This document shows positions 10,050 to 22,772 of a stretch of DNA of 64,000 nt, piece after piece (position 1 is the first letter of the stretch; each line of letters begins with the position of its first letter). The notes beneath the pieces are model-generated. The model saw only the letters and a program-made list of their open reading frames with translations. It ran no database searches and was not told the origin of the DNA. A program made the position numbers and the translations under genes. Location of the stretch: NCBI GenBank assembly GCA_011839185.1, contig GCA_011839185.1_3918.1; one strand, 5' to 3'. Source of the DNA: a phage.

Positions 10050-10931
10050 ATGAAAACAACTATCCGAGTTCTGCTTAATGCTAATACTAAAGGTAGCATT
10101 CAAGAAGTCTTTAACATTATCCAATTCCCGTCTGGTGAGATTGGTGGCAACTTCTCCGAAGACTTTGTTGGATTTGCTGAAAAATTTGCTGGACAGATTG
10201 ATAATGCTTTCTTCGCAGTGCAAGGCTATGACAAAGATACGCTATTTGCATTAGCTCTGGCTAAAGAGGCAGTTGATAAATTGGTTCCTCAAGGTTCAGC
10301 TACGAAGACAGTTGTTTTTGGATTCTTACCAAACGCACGTTATGACCGTCACATGTTTAAAGGTGATGCAGCAGCCCTTAAGGTATTTGCTAATTTGGTA
10401 AATGCAATGGAGTTTGATGCAGTATGTGCTTTGGACACTCACAGTAACGTTGCAGAAAACCTTTTCAAGTGCTTCCACAACTTACCTCAGAAAGAGTTTG
10501 CAGCACACTTTGCAAGTGACCCTCGCATTGATTACTTGGTAGCTCCAGATGCAGGTGCAGCTAAGAAGACTGAAGAGACTGCTAAAGAGGTTGACAAGCC
10601 TTACATTACAATGGCAAAAGTTCGCAACCTGAAAACTGGTGAAATCACTGGTATGCGACTTCTCGATGATGTAGACTTAACTGGTAAAACCGTCATGATT
10701 CTTGATGATATTTGTGATGGTGGTCGAACATTCGTAGAGGCTGCAAAGTGTCTTCGTGAAGCTGGAGCAGAACGTGTGGAACTGTATGTGACACATGGTA
10801 TTTTCTCTAAAGGTGTCCAGAACCTTCTTTACAATGGTATTGACCATGTTTATACTACAAACTCTTTAGGAAATGCTGAAGACCGTGGGTTATCACATTT
10901 CAACAAAGTAACTGTAGCAAACCTTGATTAA
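10050..10931 (+). CDS. ribose-phosphate pyrophosphokinase-like enzyme (PRPP synthetase or ADPR-PP synthetase type)
   Basis: 293 aa; LVAPDAGAAKK and VMILDDICDGGRT PRPP-binding-type motifs. Confidence 0.7.
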   Translation: MKTTIRVLLNANTKGSIQEVFNIIQFPSGEIGGNFSEDFVGFAEKFAGQIDNAFFAVQGYDKDTLFALALAKEAVDKLVPQGSATKTVVFGFLPNARYDRHMFKGDAAALKVFANLVNAMEFDAVCALDTHSNVAENLFKCFHNLPQKEFAAHFASDPRIDYLVAPDAGAAKKTEETAKEVDKPYITMAKVRNLKTGEITGMRLLDDVDLTGKTVMILDDICDGGRTFVEAAKCLREAGAERVELYVTHGIFSKGVQNLLYNGIDHVYTTNSLGNAEDRGLSHFNKVTVANLD

Positions 10932-10976: not shown

Positions 10977-12758
10977 ATGACTAAATCACTTTATGCAGTA
11001 CCAGCAGGTTTAAACGCAGATGCTTACAAATCTGGTCACATTTACCAGTATCCTAGTGCAACAGAATACTTGATGTTCAACCTAACACCACGTAGTGACA
11101 AATGGTTTAACAGCCCTTTAGCAATTGACGGTGTAGTGGCTTTTGGTATTCAACGTTTTGTTAAAGATTACCTGATAGACCACTGGAACGCCACCTTCTT
11201 TGAACGTGACAAAAAAGAAGCAATTGATGAAATCTTAGAAGTCATGAACGGTGTTCTGGGTAAAGATGCTATTGGTCGAGAGCATTGGGAAGCACTCCAT
11301 GACTTAGGTTATCTACCAGTTGAAGTATACGCTGTAGAAGAAGGCACAGTTGTCCCTATGCGTGTACCAATTATTGTCTTCCAGAACACTGTTTCAGGTT
11401 TCCATTGGGTAGCGGGGTATCTTGAAGATGCTTTCTCTGCTGAGATTTGGAAGGCTTGTACCATTGCAACTATTGCATTGCACTACAAACGTATCTGTAA
11501 GAAGTGGGCTGACCTTACTTGTGACAACGACTTGCATTTACCTTATCAGTGCCATGACTTTGCTATGCGTGGTATGTCCGGCTTTACTGATGACGCATTT
11601 AACGCTGTAGGACACTTAACCAGCTTTAAAGGAACTGATAGTTTCCCTGCTGTGTATACAGCTAAACGCATCTATGGGCAGTCCTACCCAATCTCTGATA
11701 TTGGTAGTTCTGTACCAGCCACTGAACACTCTGTAATGTGTGCAAACATTGCTTGGGAAGGTGGTAATGAATTGATTGAAGAAGAAAGACGCTTCAAAGG
11801 TGAGTTGCAAACCTTCCGTCGCTTCTTAACAGAGACTTACCCGACTGGTATTGCAAGTATTGTTTCAGACACTTATAACTTCTGGAGAACTGTGTCAGAA
11901 ATCTTGCCAGCACTTCGCAAAGAGATTATGGAACGTGACGGTAAACTGGTAATTCGTCCTGACTCTGGAGACCCTGTACATATTGTCACAGGTTATAAAG
12001 CAATCCACTTAGAGTGTGCTAAAAAGGCTTATTATGAACACCTAAGCAAGCTGGAAGCCAGTGACACAATGCTGAATGCTGTTCTGAACATGAAGCTTGA
12101 GAATATCAACTATGGTATTGCTGGATGGCTACTGTCAGAAGGCTATGAAATGGTTGTTGACAGAGAAGACTTTGAAGTTGCTGATACAGTGATGTTGAAA
12201 AATGCTTATATGGTTGGTTCTGCAAACGTTGTAACACGTCCTGTAGCAGAGATTGATGGGGCCATTAAGACCCTGTATAACATCTTTGGAGGAACTATCA
12301 ACTCTAAAGGGTTTAAGGTACTGGATGAGCACATTGGACTTATCTATGGTGACTCTATCACGTTGGAACGTGCAAACGAAATCCTGAAGCGTTTGTATGA
12401 AATGGGTTTTGCAAGTTCTAACGTAGTGTTTGGTGTAGGTTCTTACACTTACCAGTACATGACTCGTGACACCTTTGCATTTGCTGTCAAAGCAACTCTT
12501 GCGAGCATTGGTGGTAAAGAGATTATGCTTGCAAAAGACCCTAAAACAGATAGTGGTATTAAGAAGTCTGCTTTTGGTGGTGTAGCCCCTATGTGGGATG
12601 GTGAGAACCTGAAAGCTGTAGATGGCTATGGATTCCAGAGTTTTGCAGATGCACTTGAACACCCAGCTTGTGCTTTACGTCTAGTCTTTAGCGACTCTGA
12701 GCAGTTCGGCTACACAACTCTTGGCGATATTCGAAATAATATTGACAAGCAGCTTTAA
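10977..12758 (+). CDS. nicotinamide phosphoribosyltransferase-family protein (NAMPT-like)
   Basis: 593 aa; VIRPDSGDP motif typical of NAMPT/NAPRT enzymes; directly downstream of the Prs-like gene. Confidence 0.7.
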   Translation: MTKSLYAVPAGLNADAYKSGHIYQYPSATEYLMFNLTPRSDKWFNSPLAIDGVVAFGIQRFVKDYLIDHWNATFFERDKKEAIDEILEVMNGVLGKDAIGREHWEALHDLGYLPVEVYAVEEGTVVPMRVPIIVFQNTVSGFHWVAGYLEDAFSAEIWKACTIATIALHYKRICKKWADLTCDNDLHLPYQCHDFAMRGMSGFTDDAFNAVGHLTSFKGTDSFPAVYTAKRIYGQSYPISDIGSSVPATEHSVMCANIAWEGGNELIEEERRFKGELQTFRRFLTETYPTGIASIVSDTYNFWRTVSEILPALRKEIMERDGKLVIRPDSGDPVHIVTGYKAIHLECAKKAYYEHLSKLEASDTMLNAVLNMKLENINYGIAGWLLSEGYEMVVDREDFEVADTVMLKNAYMVGSANVVTRPVAEIDGAIKTLYNIFGGTINSKGFKVLDEHIGLIYGDSITLERANEILKRLYEMGFASSNVVFGVGSYTYQYMTRDTFAFAVKATLASIGGKEIMLAKDPKTDSGIKKSAFGGVAPMWDGENLKAVDGYGFQSFADALEHPACALRLVFSDSEQFGYTTLGDIRNNIDKQL

Positions 12759-13333: not shown

Positions 13334-15700
13334 ATGCGCATGGTAAATGACCACGCAGAAGTGATTAAGAGTTCAACTTCTTTAGAGACGTCTCAAGCAC
13401 AGATTACAATGACACCTGAGATGTTCAGCCTTTTGAGTTCTGGTGTATATACCTTTAAAGAAAGGGCAGTGATTCGTGAACTGTCATGTAACGCAGTAGA
13501 TGCTCAGAAAGAAGCTGGAAAAGAGAACATTCCGTTCCATGTGCATTTACCTACTCGTTTTGAGCCTTACTTTGAAGTTCGTGATTTTGGAACTGGATTG
13601 ACTCATGATAAAGTTATGAGTTTGTACCTAAACTACGGGGCTTCTACGAAGAATGACTCTAATGACTACATTGGTGCAATGGGTATCGGCTCAAAATCCC
13701 CATTTGCAATTGCTCAGTCATTCACAGTATCTAGCTATGTTGATGGTGTTGTTAATAAGTACTCTGTTTATCTTGAGAATGGTATCCCTCAAGTAACTAA
13801 GCTGACCACTAACCCAACAAAAGAACCCAATGGTTTAGCTGTACGTGTGGCAGTTGCTGACCACCGTATCTCAAAGTTCTTTGAAGAAGCTGGAAATGTG
13901 TACTCATACTTCACTGTAAAACCAGAAAGTAATATTGAGTACGACGATGTATTAGCAGATATGAACGTCATTGCCCGTGAAGAAGGTGTTTATGATGCCA
14001 TGATTCATAAGCAAAGCTGGCGTTCTAGTGGTAACAGGACAGAGTTTAATGTGGTGATGGGTAATATTGCCTATCCAGTGAACATGGAAGCATTACTTGG
14101 TGATGATTTCTTCAAAGTCTTGCCAGAGTTTTTCCGTAGGAGCGTAGACCTTGTAAACATCTACATGCCTATTGGTTCAGTTGCTATAGCAGCTTCTCGT
14201 GAAGCATTGCAGATGAATGATACGACAAAAAATGTTATCATCGAGGCTACCAAAAAGATAACTGAAGCAATTACAAAGGATGTTATCAAGAAAGTTAATA
14301 GCCAACCTACACTCATGGATGCTGCACAGGCTTATGCAGAGTTACGTTTGAACTCACGAGAGATGTTTAATGCTGTGTGTCCAAAGCTAGAGTGGGGAGG
14401 CGTTAAGCTTGATTCTCTGGAAGAAGAATTGTTAAACATTCGTCGTGGAATTATCTACGCAGAAGACGGCTCAGTCATTTATGAACGTGACGGTAAAGGC
14501 AATATTAAGGTTGATAGGAACGGGAACAATATCCCTAAAGTAGATTATCTTTATAACCCAGTTGCTTATGTCAAGTTCAACTCTTTAGAGAGTAAGATTC
14601 GTGCAACAGCACTTTCCTACACTCAAGAGGCAAGTATGTTCAATATCTTTGGCGCAATGCGTAAAAGCCAAATTGAACAGTTTTTGTTCGTGATTAATGA
14701 CCGTCGCAATAAAAATGGTACTGAGAAGACTGTAGGCCGCAATCAGATTCTGCGTGGTGCATGTCGAGACTACGCCAGTGAGTCAAGTCTGTTTCACAGA
14801 TATAATGGTATTGTGTTTGTATTCTCGACTGAAAAAGAGTTAGACGACCTAATCAACCTACACAAACTTGATAAAAGCTTGTTAAAGATTGTGAAGATGT
14901 CTGATAAGGAACATCACTATCAGCGTAAAGAAGCTGTAAGAGGTGTTGTAAAACTCTGGAAAGCTGTTCCAGCAGAAGGTGTAGCTTCCTATAAAGAGGT
15001 TTCAGAGGACTTAGATACGATTGAAGAGCCTCAGCTTTATATTAAGGCAGTAGGCGACACAGTTGATGGCGAATGTTTTTGCTCATCTCCAGAAGATGTA
15101 GCTAAGTCAGTTGCCAATGTCATTGGAAAGAAAGTATATGTTTTCCGAAAAGCAAATTGGAAAAAGATACCAGAAGACTGGATTGAAGTAGATGAGAAGC
15201 TCTTGAATGACAGCTTAACTGATGTTCACTGGATTAACCATAACAGGTATATGACACGTATCTATATGAATGGTGTCCTTGACCTTACAAGCAGTTGGAT
15301 TATTGCCAGAAACTTTACGTTCAATAACAGGAAGATTTCTCGTGGCTATTGTTATTCGCGGGATACAAACAAAACTATCTTCTTAGAAGGTAATGAAGAT
15401 GCTGTAGAGGCAATGTTTGGTAAAATCCAATACGTTGCTGCACCATTTGCATACACTTACATTATTAGTGTGTTGCAAGATTTGAAAAGGTGTCTTGATA
15501 ATGATACAAAGCTTTACAAGAAAATTAAGAAAGCTGGTGACCGCATGGTCATTAAGGTGACAAACTACCTTTCAAAAAGAAAACAAGAAAACTTCTTGCT
15601 TTCTCATTTAGATTGGAATAAAGTGTCACCCATCGAAGTGAGTAAGTTCTTAGGCTTTGATGTGAAGTGTGTTCCAGAAGGGACTACAATTTACGATTAA
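13334..15700 (+). CDS. rIIA: rIIA-like protein with GHKL-type ATPase N-terminal domain
   Basis: 788 aa; ELSCNAVDA, DFGTG and GAMGIGSKS motifs of a histidine-kinase-like ATPase fold; followed by an rIIB-sized gene. Confidence 0.7.
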   Translation: MRMVNDHAEVIKSSTSLETSQAQITMTPEMFSLLSSGVYTFKERAVIRELSCNAVDAQKEAGKENIPFHVHLPTRFEPYFEVRDFGTGLTHDKVMSLYLNYGASTKNDSNDYIGAMGIGSKSPFAIAQSFTVSSYVDGVVNKYSVYLENGIPQVTKLTTNPTKEPNGLAVRVAVADHRISKFFEEAGNVYSYFTVKPESNIEYDDVLADMNVIAREEGVYDAMIHKQSWRSSGNRTEFNVVMGNIAYPVNMEALLGDDFFKVLPEFFRRSVDLVNIYMPIGSVAIAASREALQMNDTTKNVIIEATKKITEAITKDVIKKVNSQPTLMDAAQAYAELRLNSREMFNAVCPKLEWGGVKLDSLEEELLNIRRGIIYAEDGSVIYERDGKGNIKVDRNGNNIPKVDYLYNPVAYVKFNSLESKIRATALSYTQEASMFNIFGAMRKSQIEQFLFVINDRRNKNGTEKTVGRNQILRGACRDYASESSLFHRYNGIVFVFSTEKELDDLINLHKLDKSLLKIVKMSDKEHHYQRKEAVRGVVKLWKAVPAEGVASYKEVSEDLDTIEEPQLYIKAVGDTVDGECFCSSPEDVAKSVANVIGKKVYVFRKANWKKIPEDWIEVDEKLLNDSLTDVHWINHNRYMTRIYMNGVLDLTSSWIIARNFTFNNRKISRGYCYSRDTNKTIFLEGNEDAVEAMFGKIQYVAAPFAYTYIISVLQDLKRCLDNDTKLYKKIKKAGDRMVIKVTNYLSKRKQENFLLSHLDWNKVSPIEVSKFLGFDVKCVPEGTTIYD

Positions 15701-15705
15701 AGTGT

Positions 15706-15735
15706 TTGACAAGGGGCTTCAAAGCCCCTTAGAAT
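15706..15735 (+). promoter_or_regulatory. sigma70-like promoter overlapping a hairpin
   Basis: TTGACA, 17-nt spacer (AGGGGCTTCAAAGCCCC, itself an inverted repeat), then TAGAAT. Confidence 0.45.
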
Positions 15736-15779
15736 AGCCTTACAAAATGATTTATTAACTAACAAGAGAGAGTAATAAG

Positions 15780-16889
15780 ATGACTACTAAAACTAAAGCA
15801 CAGATTGACGCAGAAATTTACAAACTGGTTAAAGAAGGTAAGCTGACTAAAACAGCTATTGCACAGAAATTTAATACTTCAACCCGTTCAGTTGGTCGTG
15901 CTGTAGAGCGTCATGAAGCAACCTTAAAAGGGAATAAGAAGGCGACTTCTACACCAGCTACGAAAACTTTGAAGCAAGTTGCTAAGACCTTTAAGAAGAA
16001 AGCTGGCAAACCAGTTGAAAAGGCTGTTAAAGAGTCTGTACAGAAAGCTCCGGTGAATAAACTGCATGAAGCTATGCAGAAAGATGACAAGATTGAGTAC
16101 ATGATTACTGGTGACTCTGTAATTATGACTTACGGTTCAGAATCTGAAATTGTTGAGTCTACTCATCCGAACTATCAAGATATTGTAGTTCATGTTGTGA
16201 AAGGTGAGTTTAAGAAAGCCTTTGAACTGATGAACATTCGTAAGTCTATCGAAAACTTCACTCAGGGTGCTATCACAATCAAAGGTGACAAGCTATTCTA
16301 CGGTGCTGTTGAGATGCGTTCTACTCTGGTTGACCGTATTCTTCACATGATGAAGACTGGGGATAAAGGTTTTGAACGCCTTGTGATGTTCTTCGAAAAA
16401 CTGATGGAAAACCCATCTAAAGATTCTGTAGAACAACTTTGGGGCTTCGTATCTCACCTTGATGTTGAAATTGATGAAGAAGGTTACATCATTGGTTGGA
16501 AGAAAGTATCTACTCGTGAAGGCAAGTTGGTTGATTCTCACACCTACAGAGTGCCTAATGATTTGGGTAACATTGTAGAAATGCCACGTTGGATGGTTGA
16601 TAATAACCGTAACGTGACTTGCTCTCAAGGTCTTCATGTTGGTGCTTGGGATTATGTTCGTTGTTTCTCAGGTGATACAATTCTGAAGGTTCGTGTCCAT
16701 CCACGAGATGTTGTATCTGTTCCAACTGATTACAACGATATGAAGATGCGCTCATCTCGTTATGAAGTTGCAGCAATCGTTGATAATCAACGTAAAGTGT
16801 TGAAAGCATGGGATGGCAAGACTGAAGCTTTACATGTCATCGTTGGTACTGCTGGTGAACTCATCTCTCAGCGTAAACGTGAAATCTAA
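15780..16889 (+). CDS. rIIB: rIIB-like protein
   Basis: 369 aa immediately downstream of the rIIA-like gene; assignment by position and size only. Confidence 0.5.
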   Translation: MTTKTKAQIDAEIYKLVKEGKLTKTAIAQKFNTSTRSVGRAVERHEATLKGNKKATSTPATKTLKQVAKTFKKKAGKPVEKAVKESVQKAPVNKLHEAMQKDDKIEYMITGDSVIMTYGSESEIVESTHPNYQDIVVHVVKGEFKKAFELMNIRKSIENFTQGAITIKGDKLFYGAVEMRSTLVDRILHMMKTGDKGFERLVMFFEKLMENPSKDSVEQLWGFVSHLDVEIDEEGYIIGWKKVSTREGKLVDSHTYRVPNDLGNIVEMPRWMVDNNRNVTCSQGLHVGAWDYVRCFSGDTILKVRVHPRDVVSVPTDYNDMKMRSSRYEVAAIVDNQRKVLKAWDGKTEALHVIVGTAGELISQRKREI

Positions 16890-16906
16890 TAAGTAATTTC
16901 TTAAAA

Positions 16907-16928
16907 GGCTGCTTCGGCGGCCTTTTTT
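16907..16928 (+). terminator. rho-independent terminator
   Basis: GC-rich hairpin around TTCG followed by TTTTTT. Confidence 0.55.
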
Positions 16929-16989
16929 ATTTGTATTTTGTGCAGAGTGCTGTATAATTGTTGTCACGATAAACTAAACAGGAGAACCA

Positions 16990-17538
16990 ATGAAGAAATT
17001 GATTCTAGGTTTGTGCTTAATGTTTACAGCACACTTATCTTATGCAGTTGACTGCCCAGAGCTATCAATTAGCCAAAAAGTGAACATGTTAAAAGCTTAC
17101 CAGTATGGTGAGAATAACATGGGTAAAGGTTGGGGTATCACTCTAGCAGCTATAGCCTTACAAGAGTCAGAGTTAGGTCTGAAGGTAGAAAATAAAAAGA
17201 CCCATGACTATGGTATCTTCCAGAATCACTTGAAGACTGTTGTAAAGCGTAACAAAATTAGTCCTAATGTTGCTAAAAAGAAACTCTTAAAAGATTTTGA
17301 CTATGCCGCAAAAGAAACACATAAAGAGCTTGAGTTTTGGACGAAGGTACATGGTCAGCCAAAGTCAAAGAAGACTTTACAAAAAGTTTTAGCATCATAT
17401 AATGCTGGGTATTCGTACAAAACCCCTAAAGCTAAGAAATACTCTCAAGATGTCTATAACAATATGAAAGTTATCGCTCAATGTGAATTTGCAACAAACA
17501 TTTCTAAGGTAAATCATGAAAAAATTAAGAAAGTCTGA
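16990..17538 (+). CDS. secreted lytic transglycosylase / lysozyme-like protein
   Basis: 182 aa; N-terminal signal-peptide-like segment; ALQESELG ... DYGIFQ resembles the SLT catalytic region. Confidence 0.45.
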   Translation: MKKLILGLCLMFTAHLSYAVDCPELSISQKVNMLKAYQYGENNMGKGWGITLAAIALQESELGLKVENKKTHDYGIFQNHLKTVVKRNKISPNVAKKKLLKDFDYAAKETHKELEFWTKVHGQPKSKKTLQKVLASYNAGYSYKTPKAKKYSQDVYNNMKVIAQCEFATNISKVNHEKIKKV

Positions 17539-18211
17539 TGAAGTCCTGTGCCACGCTTATGACTTGCATCCTCATGAGTTAGGTCTTGATTCCTGTGTAT
17601 GGACTCCAGAACAGTGCAGGGATTTTGAAGACACTGCAAGAGAAGTTGTATGTTCACTGGAAGAGTTCCACACATCAGAACCAATTGTGAACGTTGTGGA
17701 CAAAGAGACTGGACAAACTATAGGTGTAAGGCGTGATAGTTTAGTCATAGTCAATAAAGACCTTGTAGAAAAAGGTAACCTCATCTTAGCAGATATTGAT
17801 GGTGTTCTTACAAATTTTAATCACGAAGATTGCTCAACGGAATTGACTGATGGGTCATTCTCACAGTACACTAATCTTCTTGACTCTGTAAGAGCAAAAC
17901 CAACGTATGTTTTTAGTATTATTGATGCAATTGCTAATCATGCTGCCATTGGACTCTTGACAGCGAGAGGTGAATCTCAGAGAATACCTACTGAGATGTT
18001 TTTAAGGCATAACATAGAGCATGATTACATGCTTTTTATGCGTGGTTTTGGAACTAACTCTATAAGTGCAGAAAGTTTAAAAGTGAGGATGATTCAGTCT
18101 TGCATTCTTCCTTATTTTAATATAGTATGCTTTATAGAAGATACAGAGAAGAATGTTCAGAAGGTAAACAGAATCCTTCCACACATTAAAACCATGTTAG
18201 TTAAACATTGA
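17516..18211 (+). CDS. hypothetical protein, possible HAD-family phosphatase
   Basis: 231 aa; LADIDGVLTNF resembles the HAD DxDG motif; weak. Confidence 0.35.
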   Translation: MKKLRKSDEVLCHAYDLHPHELGLDSCVWTPEQCRDFEDTAREVVCSLEEFHTSEPIVNVVDKETGQTIGVRRDSLVIVNKDLVEKGNLILADIDGVLTNFNHEDCSTELTDGSFSQYTNLLDSVRAKPTYVFSIIDAIANHAAIGLLTARGESQRIPTEMFLRHNIEHDYMLFMRGFGTNSISAESLKVRMIQSCILPYFNIVCFIEDTEKNVQKVNRILPHIKTMLVKH

Positions 18212-18687
18212 GAGAAAAACTTATGAACAATATCATTACGGTAGCACTGGACGATACGGCAAACAAATCTGAAGTAGTTCGTAAAATGATTCAAGGTAAC
18301 TTTGAAGGTAAAATTTTCCGTGCTGTTAATGTAAAAGCTGATGGCAGTATTCGTGAATACCGTGCATTGTTGAATGTTAAAAAGCACGTAAAAGGTGCTG
18401 GTTCAACGACTGCACACAAAGAAAACCTGATGACTATCTATGATATGGGTAAGGCTTCAGAGTTAGGTGCTGAAGGTATCGTTAAAGAAGGTGCTCCGTA
18501 TCGCTCTTTCAATCTGGAAACTACTCTTATGCTTTCCTTTACGAGTGGTTCTAAAACAATCACTTATCTCTTTACTGATGCTGCAACGGTATCTGCTATT
18601 AAGGATAGCACTGTCAAAGCTGGCGTAGTTGCTGCTGCAAAAGCTTCTTCGATGGCTGCAAATATCCTTGCTAAAGTCCTCGGTTAA
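18208..18687 (+). CDS. hypothetical protein
   Basis: 159 aa; followed by a strong terminator. Confidence 0.45.
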   Translation: MREKLMNNIITVALDDTANKSEVVRKMIQGNFEGKIFRAVNVKADGSIREYRALLNVKKHVKGAGSTTAHKENLMTIYDMGKASELGAEGIVKEGAPYRSFNLETTLMLSFTSGSKTITYLFTDAATVSAIKDSTVKAGVVAAAKASSMAANILAKVLG

Positions 18688-18699
18688 GGTTAAGATACA

Positions 18700-18721
18700 G
18701 GCTCCTTCGGGAGCCTTTTTC
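18700..18721 (+). terminator. rho-independent terminator
   Basis: GGCTCC-TTCG-GGAGCC followed by TTTTT. Confidence 0.65.
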
Positions 18722-18739
18722 ATTTCAGGAGATTGTTAA

Positions 18740-19087
18740 ATGACATTTAAAGAGTTCTGTCAAGCTACTTTCATAATTGTTTTCTTAGTTGGGGCAGGTG
18801 TCTGGGGAGGATACTCTTACAGAGACTACCAAGTTGCTGAAACTGAGCTAAACAATGAGAAGCTGATAAGTGTTGCTAAAGATGCTTATCAGGAAGGATT
18901 AGCTACACTGAGCACCAATTACAAAAATGATTTGAAAGATGTGCTTGCTAAGAATAAGCACACAAAAGAGGTACTAACGTATGAAAAAACTAAGCCAGAG
19001 TTTTATAATGTTTGTGTTACTGATAATTATGTCAGGGTGTTCAACGAACAAAGTGAACAGTACATTCAAAAACTCCCAAGTAAGTGA
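18740..19087 (+). CDS. inner-membrane spanin-like protein
   Basis: 115 aa; single N-terminal TM segment then charged periplasmic-type region; 3' end overlaps a lipoprotein gene in another frame. Confidence 0.4.
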   Translation: MTFKEFCQATFIIVFLVGAGVWGGYSYRDYQVAETELNNEKLISVAKDAYQEGLATLSTNYKNDLKDVLAKNKHTKEVLTYEKTKPEFYNVCVTDNYVRVFNEQSEQYIQKLPSK

Positions 19088-19250
19088 GAGTGATAAGTAC
19101 ACTCAAGAAGATTCAAGATTCACTATCAAAGGTAATACTGGTAGTGATGTGGCAGCAGCCCTTGAGTTCTATCGTGATGGATTTTACCAGTGCACAATCA
19201 AAGCTAATAACCTTATTGATATGATTTTATTAGGAAATAAACAGCAATGA
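18981..19250 (+). CDS. outer-membrane lipoprotein, spanin-like
   Basis: 89 aa; signal peptide with lipobox-like IMSGC; starts inside the 3' end of the preceding gene. Confidence 0.4.
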   Translation: MKKLSQSFIMFVLLIIMSGCSTNKVNSTFKNSQVSESDKYTQEDSRFTIKGNTGSDVAAALEFYRDGFYQCTIKANNLIDMILLGNKQQ

Positions 19251-19516
19251 CAGAGAATGAAGATACTTTTTACGTAGAAGGATACTTACTGTTACCGCGA
19301 CCAAAAGAAACTTATATGCGAATTGACTTTATACCAACCATTATGGATAATGTGATGTGTCATATCTTTATGCAGGGTGTCACAGCACAGCTTAAGCATG
19401 TTGGTAAAGAGTGCAAAATAAAGGTTGACACTCATCCAGAAATCAAAGAGAATCACTACACATGGTTCTTACCAGACTCTAAAGAAATCTTAGCAGTTCT
19501 TAAAACGAGGAAGTAA
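19247..19516 (+). CDS. hypothetical protein
   Basis: ORF track 89 aa. Confidence 0.4.
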   Translation: MTENEDTFYVEGYLLLPRPKETYMRIDFIPTIMDNVMCHIFMQGVTAQLKHVGKECKIKVDTHPEIKENHYTWFLPDSKEILAVLKTRK

Positions 19517-19518
19517 CT

Positions 19519-19845
19519 ATGCAGATTAATGGAAGAGACTTTGTAGCCGTTTACTACGAGAAAGATAAAGAGGTTGGTGTAGCACAAGTAACTTACGGCA
19601 ATGGTAAGTGGCTATATGGAACAATCGCAGTAGTTGGAACAAGAAGTGACACAAAAACTTTTAAAGATTGTGTTGACCTTCTTGAAGAATCCATTCAGAA
19701 TCATTGGTGTCTGATATGGATGACTGACAACGAAGTGATAGAACGCTTCAAAAAGATTGATATCAACATTGATAGTATTGAGCATGTTGATTTATACGAG
19801 CTAACTGAGAAGGTAAACTATGAAAGTAATACTAGCCAGAGATAA
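19519..19845 (+). CDS. hypothetical protein
   Basis: ORF track 108 aa. Confidence 0.4.
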   Translation: MQINGRDFVAVYYEKDKEVGVAQVTYGNGKWLYGTIAVVGTRSDTKTFKDCVDLLEESIQNHWCLIWMTDNEVIERFKKIDINIDSIEHVDLYELTEKVNYESNTSQR

Positions 19846-20047
19846 AAAGACACGAAAGCTTATCAGGTCAGCAGTGTTCATTGGACGAAATGAGGTCATC
19901 CCATTTACAGCAAATGATGTGATAGCTTACAGGAAGAACTTAGTATTCACTGACTGCTTACGTGGCTTCATCTCTGAACCATTGGAAGACTTTAAAAGTC
20001 GTTGTGGTAAAGGTATCATCATTCAAGAGGCAATTATTCATGGCTGA
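19820..20047 (+). CDS. hypothetical protein
   Basis: ORF track 75 aa. Confidence 0.35.
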   Translation: MKVILARDKKTRKLIRSAVFIGRNEVIPFTANDVIAYRKNLVFTDCLRGFISEPLEDFKSRCGKGIIIQEAIIHG

Positions 20048-20240
20048 CTTCTGTAAAGATTGTTCTATCGAAATGTTCGGACGTGATACAGGTGACTTAA
20101 AAGGTCTTATCACTGAAGATGACTTTAAAGCTGGTTATGCAATGCCAGTAATCTGTGAAGGTTGTGGGTGCATCTGGGTAGACCACGAAGGGCAGCGTGT
20201 AAAACCTTCAGAAGATAAAGAATCTTGGGAGAGATGTTAA
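20040..20240 (+). CDS. small Cys-rich protein (start trimmed to the ATG overlapping the upstream stop)
   Basis: MADFCKDC ... CEGCGC cysteine pairs; ORF-track entry 19962..20240 trimmed. Confidence 0.35.
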   Translation: MADFCKDCSIEMFGRDTGDLKGLITEDDFKAGYAMPVICEGCGCIWVDHEGQRVKPSEDKESWERC

Positions 20241-21026
20241 ATGGGTATTGTAAAAATCATCAATGGCGATATCTTTGCCGCATTTGATAAAGGTAAGTTT
20301 GACATTATTGGTCACGGTTGCAACTGTATGAATTTAATGGGTGCAGGTATCGCTGACAAGATTTCTAAACTTTACCCAAAAGCATATGAGACAGATACAG
20401 AAGTCTATCTATATGCAGGTGGCATAGGTCACAAACCCTGTGAAAATTTACTGGGTAATTTCTCTGTAGCACGTTTAAAACAAGGTCGTATAGCTAACCT
20501 TTACACTCAGCTTAAGACTGGTAAAGATGCCCGATACAGTGCTTTAGAGTCATCTTTGAAACAGCTTAACAGATACTGTGAAGTTAATCAGTTGAAGAAA
20601 GTTGGTTTACCTATGATTGGTGCAGGTATAGGTGGGCTGGACCCTCAAGCTGTCACAGTTATCATCAATCAGGTGATGAAGAGTGTAGATGTTTATCTGT
20701 ATGTCTATGAAGGAGAGATGTACCACAAGTTACGCTCAGGTTGGAAGAACTACTGTGAACCAGAATACTTTGCAGGTGTAGCAGTGTTCACGGATAACGC
20801 AGTTACCCTCTTCAGACGAAGAAAAGGTAAGATACATCAAAGTAACCCTCCGGTTGAAAGGATGTCTCTAAGTAACGCTCTAGTTACCCACCTGTCGAAG
20901 AGCAATCACAGAATAGCTGTGACATTTGGTAGTGATGCAGATGCTTACATCTATGCAAGAACTGATGAGGATATCGAGGCAATTTTCTCATCACCGGAAG
21001 TTACCTTCTTAGACGCAAAGAACTAA
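20241..21026 (+). CDS. macro-domain-like protein (ADP-ribose binding or processing)
   Basis: 261 aa; GHGCNCMNLMGAGIADKI resembles the macro-domain Gly-rich loop; not confirmed. Confidence 0.4.
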   Translation: MGIVKIINGDIFAAFDKGKFDIIGHGCNCMNLMGAGIADKISKLYPKAYETDTEVYLYAGGIGHKPCENLLGNFSVARLKQGRIANLYTQLKTGKDARYSALESSLKQLNRYCEVNQLKKVGLPMIGAGIGGLDPQAVTVIINQVMKSVDVYLYVYEGEMYHKLRSGWKNYCEPEYFAGVAVFTDNAVTLFRRRKGKIHQSNPPVERMSLSNALVTHLSKSNHRIAVTFGSDADAYIYARTDEDIEAIFSSPEVTFLDAKN

Positions 21027-21094
21027 GAAACTCTGTAGAATATTCACAATAGACTAAGCCTTTCTTATCTGGTAAATTTTTCAGGTAAGGGGGG

Positions 21095-21280
21095 CTTTTT
21101 CATTTCAGGATTGTGCAGGTAGAGTTCTGTATAGAAATCTGTAGAGAAAATTTTGAACTCCAAAGGGAAAATTCATTTTCAAGCTGTGCAGGTAATCTCC
21201 AAAGAGCTTTTTCATTTTCAAAACGTGCAGACCCCGCTCAGGTCGGGCAAGAAAAATCATTTTAGAATCGTGCAGGTAGG
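21095..21280 (+). repeat. four direct repeats of about 25 bp (TTTTCATTTTCA-N4-GTGCAGGTA)
   Basis: copies at 21095-21122, 21168-21195, 21207-21233, 21251-21280; non-coding context upstream of the early-gene array. Confidence 0.6.
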
Positions 21281-21302
21281 TTTTTATAGAGAGTCAGACC
21301 AA

Positions 21303-21334
21303 CCCCTCTCCCCCTCTTACTCCCCCTCTCCCCA
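21303..21334 (+). repeat. CT-rich polypyrimidine tract
   Basis: CCCCTCTCCCCCTCTTACTCCCCCTCTCCCC. Confidence 0.6.
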
Positions 21335-21453
21335 AAAGTCAAGAGAAAAATTTGTAGTGGATTGAAAAATAATTCTTGATTTGTGTTTTGTTTTGTGGTA
21401 GTCGTGCGCGCCCGTTCATTTCCCAACCTTACAAAAATATTTAATAAAAACCG

Positions 21454-21482
21454 TTGACACGCCAAACAAGTTTACGTACTAT
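21454..21482 (+). promoter_or_regulatory. sigma70-like promoter
   Basis: TTGACA, 17-nt spacer, TACTAT; downstream GGAGAATC RBS before the ATG at 21532. Confidence 0.55.
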
Positions 21483-21531
21483 TTGCATCAGACGGGCAAG
21501 CTAGCCACTTCCTAAACTGGAGAATCTAAAA

Positions 21532-21723: not shown

Positions 21724-21926
21724 TTTACAGCCGTGAATTGATGGTTACAACTAACGTTAACACAAAGGTAAAACGTTTTTACATGCAAATCTGTGGCGTA
21801 TGGTCCAGAATATCAGAAGCCGACTATTGCAACTATGTAGAAACGGCAATCAACTCGAATTGCTACCTTACAAGAAACACTAAGAATTTTACAAGGCAGA
21901 CAGCGATTTACTACTACGATAAATAA
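21720..21926 (+). CDS. small early protein
   Basis: 68 aa; start overlaps the upstream stop. Confidence 0.45.
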   Translation: MIYSRELMVTTNVNTKVKRFYMQICGVWSRISEADYCNYVETAINSNCYLTRNTKNFTRQTAIYYYDK

Positions 21927-21931
21927 AGTAC

Positions 21932-21967
21932 TTTACAAGGGGCTTATAGTTCGATAGAGTAAGCCCC
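21932..21967 (+). promoter_or_regulatory. type-I cassette: promoter embedded in a hairpin
   Basis: TTTACA, 17-nt spacer, TAGAGT; the spacer and -10 lie inside the inverted repeat GGGGCTTA...TAAGCCCC; followed by the conserved UTR CAGATAAAGAGCTTTAC...GGAGATTCTAAAATG. Confidence 0.5.
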
Positions 21968-22012
21968 AGATAAAGAGCTTTACTAACTAACCTTAAACTA
22001 GGAGATTCTAAA

Positions 22013-22393
22013 ATGGCTTATCGTGCACCGAAATTCATCAACAAAGACAACTTTCGCAACGTACTGGAGAAGGCACTTGATGAAAAATTTAAAGGTAACA
22101 TTATTATTGTTCACTCATTCAATTTTAAGTATGACATCAACGGGAATAAAATCAACCATTACACGGCAACAATGATAGACGGTACGTTATCAAGTGAAAA
22201 AGCCGTACTGAATGCACTTGCTGGACGTGGTAAAAACCTGATAAGCTGCAATAAGAGACGTTATCAAGGTGGCGCATATGGTTATGATGATGCTGTTTAC
22301 CATCTTGAAAATATGGGCTATTCAGTGGAGAAAGCTGGAGCGTCTCAAATAATTGGTAGTGATGGTTATGTGACAATATTCAAAATTAACTGA
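22013..22393 (+). CDS. small early protein
   Basis: 126 aa behind a type-I cassette. Confidence 0.55.
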   Translation: MAYRAPKFINKDNFRNVLEKALDEKFKGNIIIVHSFNFKYDINGNKINHYTATMIDGTLSSEKAVLNALAGRGKNLISCNKRRYQGGAYGYDDAVYHLENMGYSVEKAGASQIIGSDGYVTIFKIN

Positions 22394-22401
22394 TAAAGTA
22401 C

Positions 22402-22437
22402 TTTACAAGGGGCTTATAGTTCGATAAAGTAAGCCCC
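22402..22437 (+). promoter_or_regulatory. type-I cassette promoter/hairpin
   Basis: near-identical copy of the 21932 cassette (TTTACA, 17 nt, ATAAAG/TAAAGT). Confidence 0.5.
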
Positions 22438-22481
22438 AGATAAAGAGCTTTACCACTCAATCCTAAATTGGAGATTCTAAA

Positions 22482-22772
22482 ATGGCTATTATCAAAAACG
22501 TTGTAATTCCTGCAAAAACTCGTGATGACGCTCGCATCATGGCGAAAAAGTTAGGCGGGAAAGTGGTTGACAATGGAAAACAATCTGCTGTAAGATGGGG
22601 CGTAAAGGCTGATAAACAGTTGAAGCTAAAAAATTCACCGATAAACCTTTTTACATGTGTAAGCACTATCGGGAAGACAAATGTATACACGAAAAAGGCA
22701 TATATTAGACGCATAACCTTAACATCCCCCATTCGTACAATGAGAAGTTATGCAAAGCTGAAAATTAACTGA
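22482..22772 (+). CDS. small early protein
   Basis: 96 aa behind a type-I cassette. Confidence 0.5.
   Translation: MAIIKNVVIPAKTRDDARIMAKKLGGKVVDNGKQSAVRWGVKADKQLKLKNSPINLFTCVSTIGKTNVYTKKAYIRRITLTSPIRTMRSYAKLKIN

Follow-up and report, generated by a model that had tools for sequence, protein, structure and literature searches.

What does the protein encoded at positions 20241–21026 of this phage genome do, and on which substrate would it act? The window analysed here is a 64,000-nucleotide stretch of contig GCA_011839185.1_3918.1 (NCBI GenBank assembly GCA_011839185.1), and a preliminary description of it had proposed, from the letters alone, a macro-domain-like protein with a possible ADP-ribose-processing or anti-defence function. 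The program-made list of open reading frames (ORFs) places an ATG-started frame of 261 amino acids at exactly these coordinates on the plus strand, and its product matches phrog_335 with an E-value of 7e-113. The protein consists of an N-terminal macro domain and a C-terminal accessory domain, laid out as follows.

20241..21026, plus strand: coding sequence of the two-domain macrodomain protein, 261 amino acids, a member of PHROG 335; the stop codon lies inside the coordinates.
20241..20708, plus strand: macro domain, residues 1–156, as delimited by Pfam Macro, the family profile, AlphaFold2 and Foldseek.
20310..20363, plus strand: ADP-ribose-binding loop 1, GHGCNCMNLMGAGIADKI, residues 24–41, with invariant H25, G26, N28, C29, M33, G36 and A38.
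20496..20510, plus strand: NLYTQ motif, residues 86–90, with the invariant Gln90.
20610..20642, plus strand: glycine-rich loop 2, PMIGAGIGGLD, residues 124–134, conserved in the family alignment (A1, below).
20709..21023, plus strand: C-terminal accessory domain, residues 157–261, comprising a linker helix followed by a six-stranded, β-rich module with one helix.

The macro identity of the N-terminal region is firm and goes far beyond chance resemblance, because the Pfam match, a family profile, an AlphaFold2 model and a Foldseek search all agree on it. Specifically, Pfam Macro (PF01661) matches residues 25–141 with an E-value of 1e-7 and 32.3 bits, against a gathering cut-off of 22 bits, and covers 116 of the 118 profile positions. 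A family profile made from an alignment of 31 homologues (alignment A1) and run against the sequences of the PDB finds TARG1/OARD1 (E 4e-17), Mycobacterium tuberculosis DarG (5e-16), the Streptomyces macrodomain protein 5e3b (2.5e-15), Poa1p (4e-15) and Thermus aquaticus DarG (1.4e-13), the matches to TARG1, DarG and Poa1p spanning positions 1–160. The AlphaFold2 model, for which A1 served as input, reaches a predicted local distance difference test score (pLDDT) of 90.8 and a predicted template-modelling score (pTM) of 0.89; in it, strands and helices alternate up to residue 155, and it superposes on TARG1 and DarG. In a Foldseek search of the PDB, the leading matches are TARG1, T. aquaticus DarG, M. 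tuberculosis DarG and Poa1p, with a probability of 1.00 and target-normalised TM-scores of 0.75–0.85, against 0.7–0.85 over many solved macrodomains, so that the predicted structure is that of a three-layer α/β/α macro fold. The profile search and the structure prediction that the preliminary description had proposed as checks thus both came out in favour of its macro label.

Within this fold, the glycine-rich peptide that the preliminary description had likened to a macro-domain ADP-ribose loop is indeed loop 1. It carries the invariant Asn28 and the segment G34-A35-G36, and in A1 and the AlphaFold2 model it follows a strand at residues 22–26 and precedes a helix at residues 36–44. The residues invariant among the 31 homologues of A1 are H25, G26, N28, C29, M33, G36, A38, P46, G72, N86, L87, T89, Q90, P124, G127 and G129, and conservation is complete or almost complete at N28, G34-A35-G36 and G127-A-G-I-G-G132, which is the conservation pattern of ADP-ribose-binding loops. 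Fold, family membership, motif conservation and two-domain architecture are established at this level.

The closest studied relative is Tk.4 of phage T4, whose alignment with the window protein spans 160 residues at 34% identity (E 3e-24); the Tk.4 orthologue of the T4-type phage teqdroes gives 35% (E 3e-25), and the T4-type macrodomain protein also falls into PHROG 335 (E 2e-71). The gene is flanked in T4-type phages by vs on one side and tk.3-tk.1-tk on the other, and in T4 it goes by the name tk.4, with the annotation "phosphatase; contains A1pp phosphatase motif". A transposon library of T4 grown on a DarTG2 host yielded tk.4 as the sole significant hit, and in the same 2025 preprint a clean tk.4 knockout sensitised T4 to DarTG2; the gene was named adfM, for anti-DarT factor, macrodomain (bioRxiv 10.1101/2025.11.20.689424). 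PhiKZ gp104, also called AdfM, strips the ADP-ribose made by DarT2 from thymidine in DNA in vitro, and its N23A mutant shows reduced activity (PMC13309987); the Asn altered in that mutant is the one conserved as N28 in the window protein. The literature search found just two papers on AdfM. Additionally, the sole NCBIfam match of the window protein is antitoxin_DarG (NF048014, E 1e-12, 48 bits) and the sole PADLOC match is DarG (E 3e-13), both being weaker for the teqdroes orthologue (1e-6 and 5e-7, respectively).

Because Tk.4 protects T4 and the only NCBIfam and PADLOC matches are DarG, reversal of DarT2 modification is the most likely role. The window protein, a so far uncharacterised representative of the Tk.4/AdfM kind, which was named recently, would be a hydrolase that takes the ADP-ribosyl groups placed by DarT2 off phage DNA as a counter-defence, a tentative assignment, made by homology, to which we give a probability of roughly 45%. 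The removal of ADP-ribosyl marks, or an anti-defence role, as first suggested for this gene, fits the best evidence at hand, which comes from the T4 homologue.

In the proposed mechanism, loop 1 (HGCNC...MGAG) and loop 2 (PMIGAGIGG) of the macro domain would hold the ADP-ribose moiety, which the domain would then cleave off the modified target. The likeliest substrate, predicted from the relatives, would be thymidine-linked ADP-ribose (T-ADPr) on single-stranded phage DNA, made by the host DarT2 of DarTG2, and its removal from the phage DNA would restore replication. The chemistry may be of the MacroD or Poa1p style, employing Asn28, His25 and an activated water, while the C-terminal 105 residues may serve as a non-catalytic accessory module that binds a partner or substrate, be it DarT2, DNA or a second copy of the protein itself.

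How far the active site agrees with this role can be read from alignment A3, which comprises the window protein, the teqdroes Tk.4 orthologue, two family members, PhiKZ gp104, both DarG macrodomains and TARG1, and which agrees with the pairwise and profile alignments. Three positions stand out.

N28: conserved, corresponding to DarG N22 and PhiKZ gp104 N23.
Q90, in N-L-Y-T-Q: an invariant Gln in place of the catalytic Lys, which is K80 in T. aquaticus DarG, K78 in PhiKZ gp104 and K84 in TARG1.
G131: replaces the catalytic Asp, D125, of TARG1.

Since the position of the catalytic Lys is an invariant Gln, the chemistry is predicted to differ from that of DarG and TARG1; judged by these alignments, that of the Tk.4 clade cannot be of the Lys-based DarG/TARG1 type. 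PhiKZ gp104, on its part, matches M. tuberculosis DarG with an E-value of 9e-25 and the window protein with 24% identity and an E-value of 3e-4. Because gp104 is a true DarG relative and just 24% identical to the window protein, sequence comparison separates the two proteins called AdfM into different macro clades, of which the Tk.4 clade includes the window protein.

A true DarG orthologue was likewise considered for the window protein and rejected on four grounds, the first of which is the Gln in place of Lys. The 48 bits scored against the DarG equivalog NF048014 lie far below its 250-bit cut-off and come from model positions 4–153 of 338 only. The DarT-binding C-terminal domain of DarG was not detected in the window protein, the NF048014 match being confined to the macro part. 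Finally, no DarT gene lies beside the macro gene, which is flanked by a 66-residue zinc-ribbon-like ORF upstream and non-coding DNA downstream, the surrounding genes belonging to phage PHROGs.

Several points weigh against DarT2 reversal. The support from Tk.4 is purely genetic and comes from a preprint, T-ADPr hydrolysis by a Tk.4-type enzyme being putative; at 34% identity to Tk.4, substrate specificity may differ; and the role is read here from sequence and a structural model rather than from an experiment with a Felix O1-like phage, the literature search having found no paper that links Felixounavirus with macro domains. The catalytic Lys of DarG and TARG1 is Gln90 and Asp125 of TARG1 is Gly131, and the biochemically proven AdfM, PhiKZ gp104, sits in the other, truly DarG-like clade. 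Moreover, loop 1 resembles that of the ADP-ribose-1''-phosphatase Poa1p, and a similarly distant relative (P0026) is fused to a cREC cyclic-phosphate-processing domain, pointing to soluble substrates.

Two solved relatives outside DarG each bring a different substrate into view. TARG1/OARD1, the best match in both structure and sequence, is a protein de-ADP-ribosylase, and the window protein might correspondingly reverse ADP-ribosylation of protein or RNA, installed by host ADP-ribosyltransferase defences or toxins or by a phage-encoded transferase whose products would have to be turned over. The match to Streptomyces 5e3b (E 2.5e-15) points the same way, since we take that entry to be SCO6735, a protein Glu-ADP-ribose hydrolase presumably also devoid of the TARG1 Lys. 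However, neither residue of the TARG1 pair is present, Q90 standing in place of K84 and G131 in place of D125; the listed parts of related genomes, where many genes are "hypothetical", contain no annotated ADP-ribosyltransferase; and no such phenotype is known for the family, which makes a protein or RNA target unlikely.

Poa1p leads instead to soluble ADP-ribose (ADPr) derivatives. Loop 1 of the window protein, H-G-C-N-C, is closer to that of Poa1p (H-S-C-N-C, beginning with H23) than to that of DarG (N-T-V-N-C), and H25 and N28 align with Poa1p H23 and N26 when read through the Tk.4 alignment; H23 was chosen for mutation in deposited Poa1p structures. The "phosphatase" label of the phage family, including the long-standing "phosphatase; A1pp motif" annotation of T4 Tk.4, stems from this likeness, and the family profile reaches Poa1p at 4e-15. 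Under this alternative, the protein would hydrolyse ADP-ribose-1''-phosphate in the manner of Poa1p, O-acetyl-ADP-ribose, or ADP-ribose-based compounds that serve as immune signals or are toxic metabolites, among them His-ADPR, gcADPR and ADPr-1''P, thereby detoxifying or silencing host signalling derived from NAD+. The metagenomic P0026 (loci L009 and L010) fuses the same macro type to cREC_REC (PF20274), whose predicted activity is the opening of 1''-2'' cyclic ADPr phosphate (PMC9503650), and by analogy this fusion suggests soluble ADPr derivatives as substrates for some members of the family; the P0026 contigs are too short for informative genomic context. The gene cluster also holds, 2 kb upstream of the macro gene, a gene for a PNKP-type HAD phosphatase (phrog_3970), and a survey makes the case that the Macro domains of phages act mostly on soluble derivatives of ADPr (PMC9503650). 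Yet such activity is putative for every phage member of the family, whose only known phenotype is DarTG2 sensitivity; the curated bacterial family matches are to DarG alone; and no KptA/Tpt1, 2H or cREC partner occurs among the listed named products of relatives, these being part-genome lists with many hypothetical entries. A soluble substrate is rated as rather unlikely, though the most probable of the alternatives.

The loss of the catalytic Lys and Asp of the nearest solved relatives would also suit a protein that catalyses nothing, an inert binder acting as reader or sponge for ADP-ribose signals and oligomerising through its C-terminal domain; other phage anti-signalling proteins act as sponges. 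Such a binder is highly improbable here: the polar residues H25, N28, T89 and Q90, which line the expected active site, are invariant across 31 diverse homologues, a more enzyme-like pattern, and the T4 homologue counters DarTG2, which modifies DNA instead of using a diffusible signal.

While the macro domain accounts for residues 1–156, where the preliminary description of the ORF as macro-like is borne out, residues 157–261 form a separate domain that it had overlooked. In the full-length AlphaFold2 model, the C-terminal blocks between residues 161 and 250 have pLDDT values of 80–94, and the overall pTM of 0.89 suggests that this module packs against the macro domain. The domain has no match to a known fold or family. 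An exhaustive HMMER profile search of 1.84 billion representative proteins returned 10 hits, of which four are two-domain macro proteins of the same family and two are gene fragments (P0032 and P0036); the remaining four, repetitive proteins of 376 to 2,851 residues that also match many unrelated Pfam families, were rejected as repeat-driven false positives. No standalone or otherwise fused copy was found among these representatives, the domain occurring only in macro fusions of Ounavirinae-like phages. Proteins of about 250 residues that are 33–45% identical to the window protein carry a homologous C-terminal domain (hhalign between the two subfamilies: probability 96.5%, E 9e-10), and they are syntenic, with rIIB, lysin and PNKP-like phosphatase genes followed by the macro gene.

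Within this domain, only P174, G179 and Y236 are conserved, and its isoelectric point ranges from 4.6 to 9.5 across homologues, so that net charge is inconsistent. Because of the few conserved residues and the inconsistent charge, the domain is probably not an enzyme, and a binding or structural module is the likelier reading of its sequence. A DNA mimic or a DNA binder was also considered; the charge, not being consistent, lends support neither way. Divergence of the C-terminal domain proceeds at about double the rate of the macro domain, identities in the macro and C-terminal parts being 81% and 56%, 53% and 23%, and 43% and 19% in three comparisons.

A domain that lacks detectable relatives and conserved polar residues of a catalytic kind, evolves fast and is predicted to pack on the macro domain leaves room for a further arrangement, in which the protein would be a two-module orphan antitoxin arisen independently of DarG2. 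It would pair a Lys-less macro domain, which takes ADP-ribose off DNA by a mechanism other than that of DarG, with a C-terminal domain of novel fold that directly binds and inhibits DarT2 or another host ADP-ribosyltransferase. This would mirror the pairing of hydrolase and toxin binding in DarG2, but we regard it as distinctly unlikely.

The pattern of local divergence bears on DarT2 reversal as well. Over 14261–19826, the window and L005, a Felixounavirus contig of metagenomic origin, share 95.5% identity, and over 21212–21420 they share 96.7%; in between identity falls to 85% over 20033–20383 and 73% over 20602–20710, with no further match; the L005 macro allele is 42% identical to the window protein. 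Because the flanks are near-identical while the allele is this divergent, the macro gene can be exchanged as a cassette in a near-identical genome. Allele replacement and fast C-terminal divergence are patterns common in genes of host–phage conflict and are counted in favour of a counter-defence against DarT2.

As separate observations on this segment, P0009 is a divergent macro allele; the divergent stretch 19826–21212, which comprises the macro gene, a 75-residue ORF and some of the zinc-ribbon ORF region, looks like a cassette-type hot spot; and the repeat region 3' of the macro gene is 96.7% conserved in L005 despite the replaced neighbouring gene.

By sequence, the window comes from a phage of the Felix O1 type (Felixounavirus, Ounavirinae): the 3 kb and the 25 kb around the macro gene find over 250 Felix O1-like genomes at 90–95% nucleotide identity, and Felixounavirus AN17P8 encodes a protein with 100% identity to the macro protein. 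About 258 phage records cover at least 80% of the macro protein, and since a full-length copy is present in about 250 Felix O1-like records, the macro gene is a conserved gene of the genus Felixounavirus. In relatives, the gene bears the labels "phosphatase", "putative phosphatase", "O-acetyl-ADP-ribose deacetylase", "macro domain-containing protein" or "hypothetical protein". The macro label given in the preliminary description is thus correct but not new, the identity being public annotation already, and apart from its extra tail domain the gene is an ordinary one. Absent from the annotations and papers examined are the family-wide Gln at the position of the DarG Lys and the lineage-restricted C-terminal domain. 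A stretch 90.8% identical to the Felix O1-like region also occurs in GenBank GU169904.1 (Staphylococcus phage SA1), which is probably a mixed or mislabelled database entry.

The immediate surroundings of the macro gene and the genes further upstream contain the following features.

20040..20240, plus strand: ORF of 66 amino acids, zinc-ribbon-like (CxxC...CxxC), phrog_2210, function unknown.
21056..21097, plus strand: terminator-like hairpin followed by a T-run, 30 nt 3' of the macro stop codon.
10050–10931, plus strand: gene resembling phosphoribosyl pyrophosphate (PRPP) synthetase, real by sequence.
10977–12758, plus strand: NAMPT-family gene, 593 amino acids, adjoining the PRPP-synthetase-like gene.
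17516–18211, plus strand: ORF of 231 amino acids, PNKP-type HAD phosphatase, phrog_3970 "polynucleotide kinase".

The start codon of the macro gene is plausible from its context, because a Shine–Dalgarno-like GGGAGAG (20227–20233) lies 7 nt 5' of the ATG and the TAA of the preceding ORF (20238–20240) touches it. This 66-residue zinc-ribbon-like ORF, whose stop abuts the macro ATG, is probably co-translated with the macro gene. In the distant relative L004, a different CxxC...CxxC ORF of 63 residues (L004:5810–6001) occupies the same position and overlaps the macro start; it looks unrelated to the 66-residue ORF of the window. A CxxC...CxxC ORF and the macro gene may form a conserved pair. The macro gene has a G+C content of 0.41, and of 0.36 at third codon positions, like its neighbours; recent horizontal acquisition was considered and rejected, composition giving no signal of it.

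Downstream, the hairpin at 21056–21097 is the probable end of the transcription unit, and the macro gene is, as first described, the final gene before the repeat array, here a non-coding, repeat-bearing stretch of about 500 nt (21027–21531). Between 21100 and 21292 lie four imperfect direct repeats, which share the core TCATTTYNNNNNNGTGCAG(GTA) and start near 21100, 21173, 21212 and 21257; they are followed by a C/T-rich tract at about 21304–21334 and by a strong σ70-like promoter, TTGACA-17-TACTAT, at 21454–21482. Rfam gave no meaningful match in this non-coding region, and a structured RNA 3' of the macro gene was rejected on that ground; the region may be a regulator-binding or origin-like array. 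Further on, from 21920–22500 onward, an intergenic module of about 95 nt (GTACTTTACAAGGGGCTTATAGTTCGAT.GAGTAAGCCCCAGATAAAGAGCTTTAC...GGAGATTCTAAAATG) is repeated 5' of each small downstream gene; it consists of a hairpin, a promoter-like element and a ribosome-binding site, and many copies are also present in the relative L001.

The preliminary description had further suggested that the macro protein complements the NAD+ enzymes encoded upstream. The NAMPT and PRPP-synthetase-like genes are real, and they resemble part, namely the NAMPT half, of the NARP2 route of NAD+ reconstitution, which consists of NAMPT and NMNAT (PMC13464706). They lie 7.5–10 kb from the macro gene, separated from it by rIIA, rIIB, a lysin-like gene, the PNKP-type HAD phosphatase, spanins and small ORFs, with terminator-like sites at 16903 and 18699. 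In T4, vs and the tk genes flank the homologue, and no NAD+ enzyme is annotated beside it. Neither the window context nor the T4 neighbourhood provided evidence of a functional link between the macro gene and NAD+ salvage, and the suggestion is left unsupported. The 231-residue ORF among the intervening genes matches, over residues 84–219 only, the HAD 3'-phosphatase part of T4 PNKP-type profiles, and no kinase part was detected in it; it may encode a nucleic-acid end-healing phosphatase.

The basic picture is unchanged by these results, macrodomains being common in myoviruses (41%; PMC9503650) and the gene already annotated as one. Felix O1-like phages are widely used in the typing, biocontrol and therapy of Salmonella and E. 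coli, and a likely anti-DarTG2 factor in them would help to predict host range on DarTG strains. The Tk.4/Felix family presents a DarTG2-linked macrodomain devoid of the catalytic Lys thought essential in DarG; if it is true that this family de-ADP-ribosylates DNA, a second catalytic solution must exist. Additionally, the orphan C-terminal domain, being small and tractable, is a candidate for a new kind of module that binds toxins or targets substrates.

Comparison with known systems sets these features side by side. DarG2 of T. aquaticus and M. tuberculosis shares the fold (target-normalised TM-score about 0.8) and a two-part layout of macro and second domain; the Asn of DarG and gp104 (N22 and N23) is kept as N28, whereas their Lys (K80 and K78) is not kept, Gln90 standing in its place. 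TARG1/OARD1 (PDB 4J5Q/4J5R/4J5S), the best PDB match by sequence (E 4e-17) and structure (E 4.5e-10, target-normalised TM-score 0.81), has in common with the window protein the loop 1 His, MGAGIA and the P-x-IG-x-G of loop 2, but its catalytic pair K84/D125 is Q90/G131 here, so that the window protein lacks a TARG1-type pair, and TARG1 has no C-terminal domain. Poa1p, the yeast ADP-ribose-1''-phosphate phosphatase (PDB 6LFQ–6LFU; profile E 4e-15, target-normalised TM-score 0.75), has the H-x-C-N-C signature of loop 1 that the window protein carries as H25-G-C-N28-C, phosphatase activity in the phages being putative; it differs in having T-S where the Tk.4/Felix family has T-Q, in its loop 2 (INSGIFG) and, again, in lacking a C-terminal domain. 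T4 Tk.4 resembles the window protein in HGCNC, NLYTQ and PxIGAGIG, including the Gln at the DarG Lys position, with homology running over the whole macro domain, and both are genes of lytic enterobacterial myoviruses. It is, however, a single domain of 155 residues, in contrast to the 261 residues and extra 105-residue C-terminal domain of the window protein; its gene is flanked by vs and tk, whereas the window gene comes after rIIA, rIIB and the lysis genes; and the anti-DarTG2 phenotype is on record for Tk.4 alone of the two.

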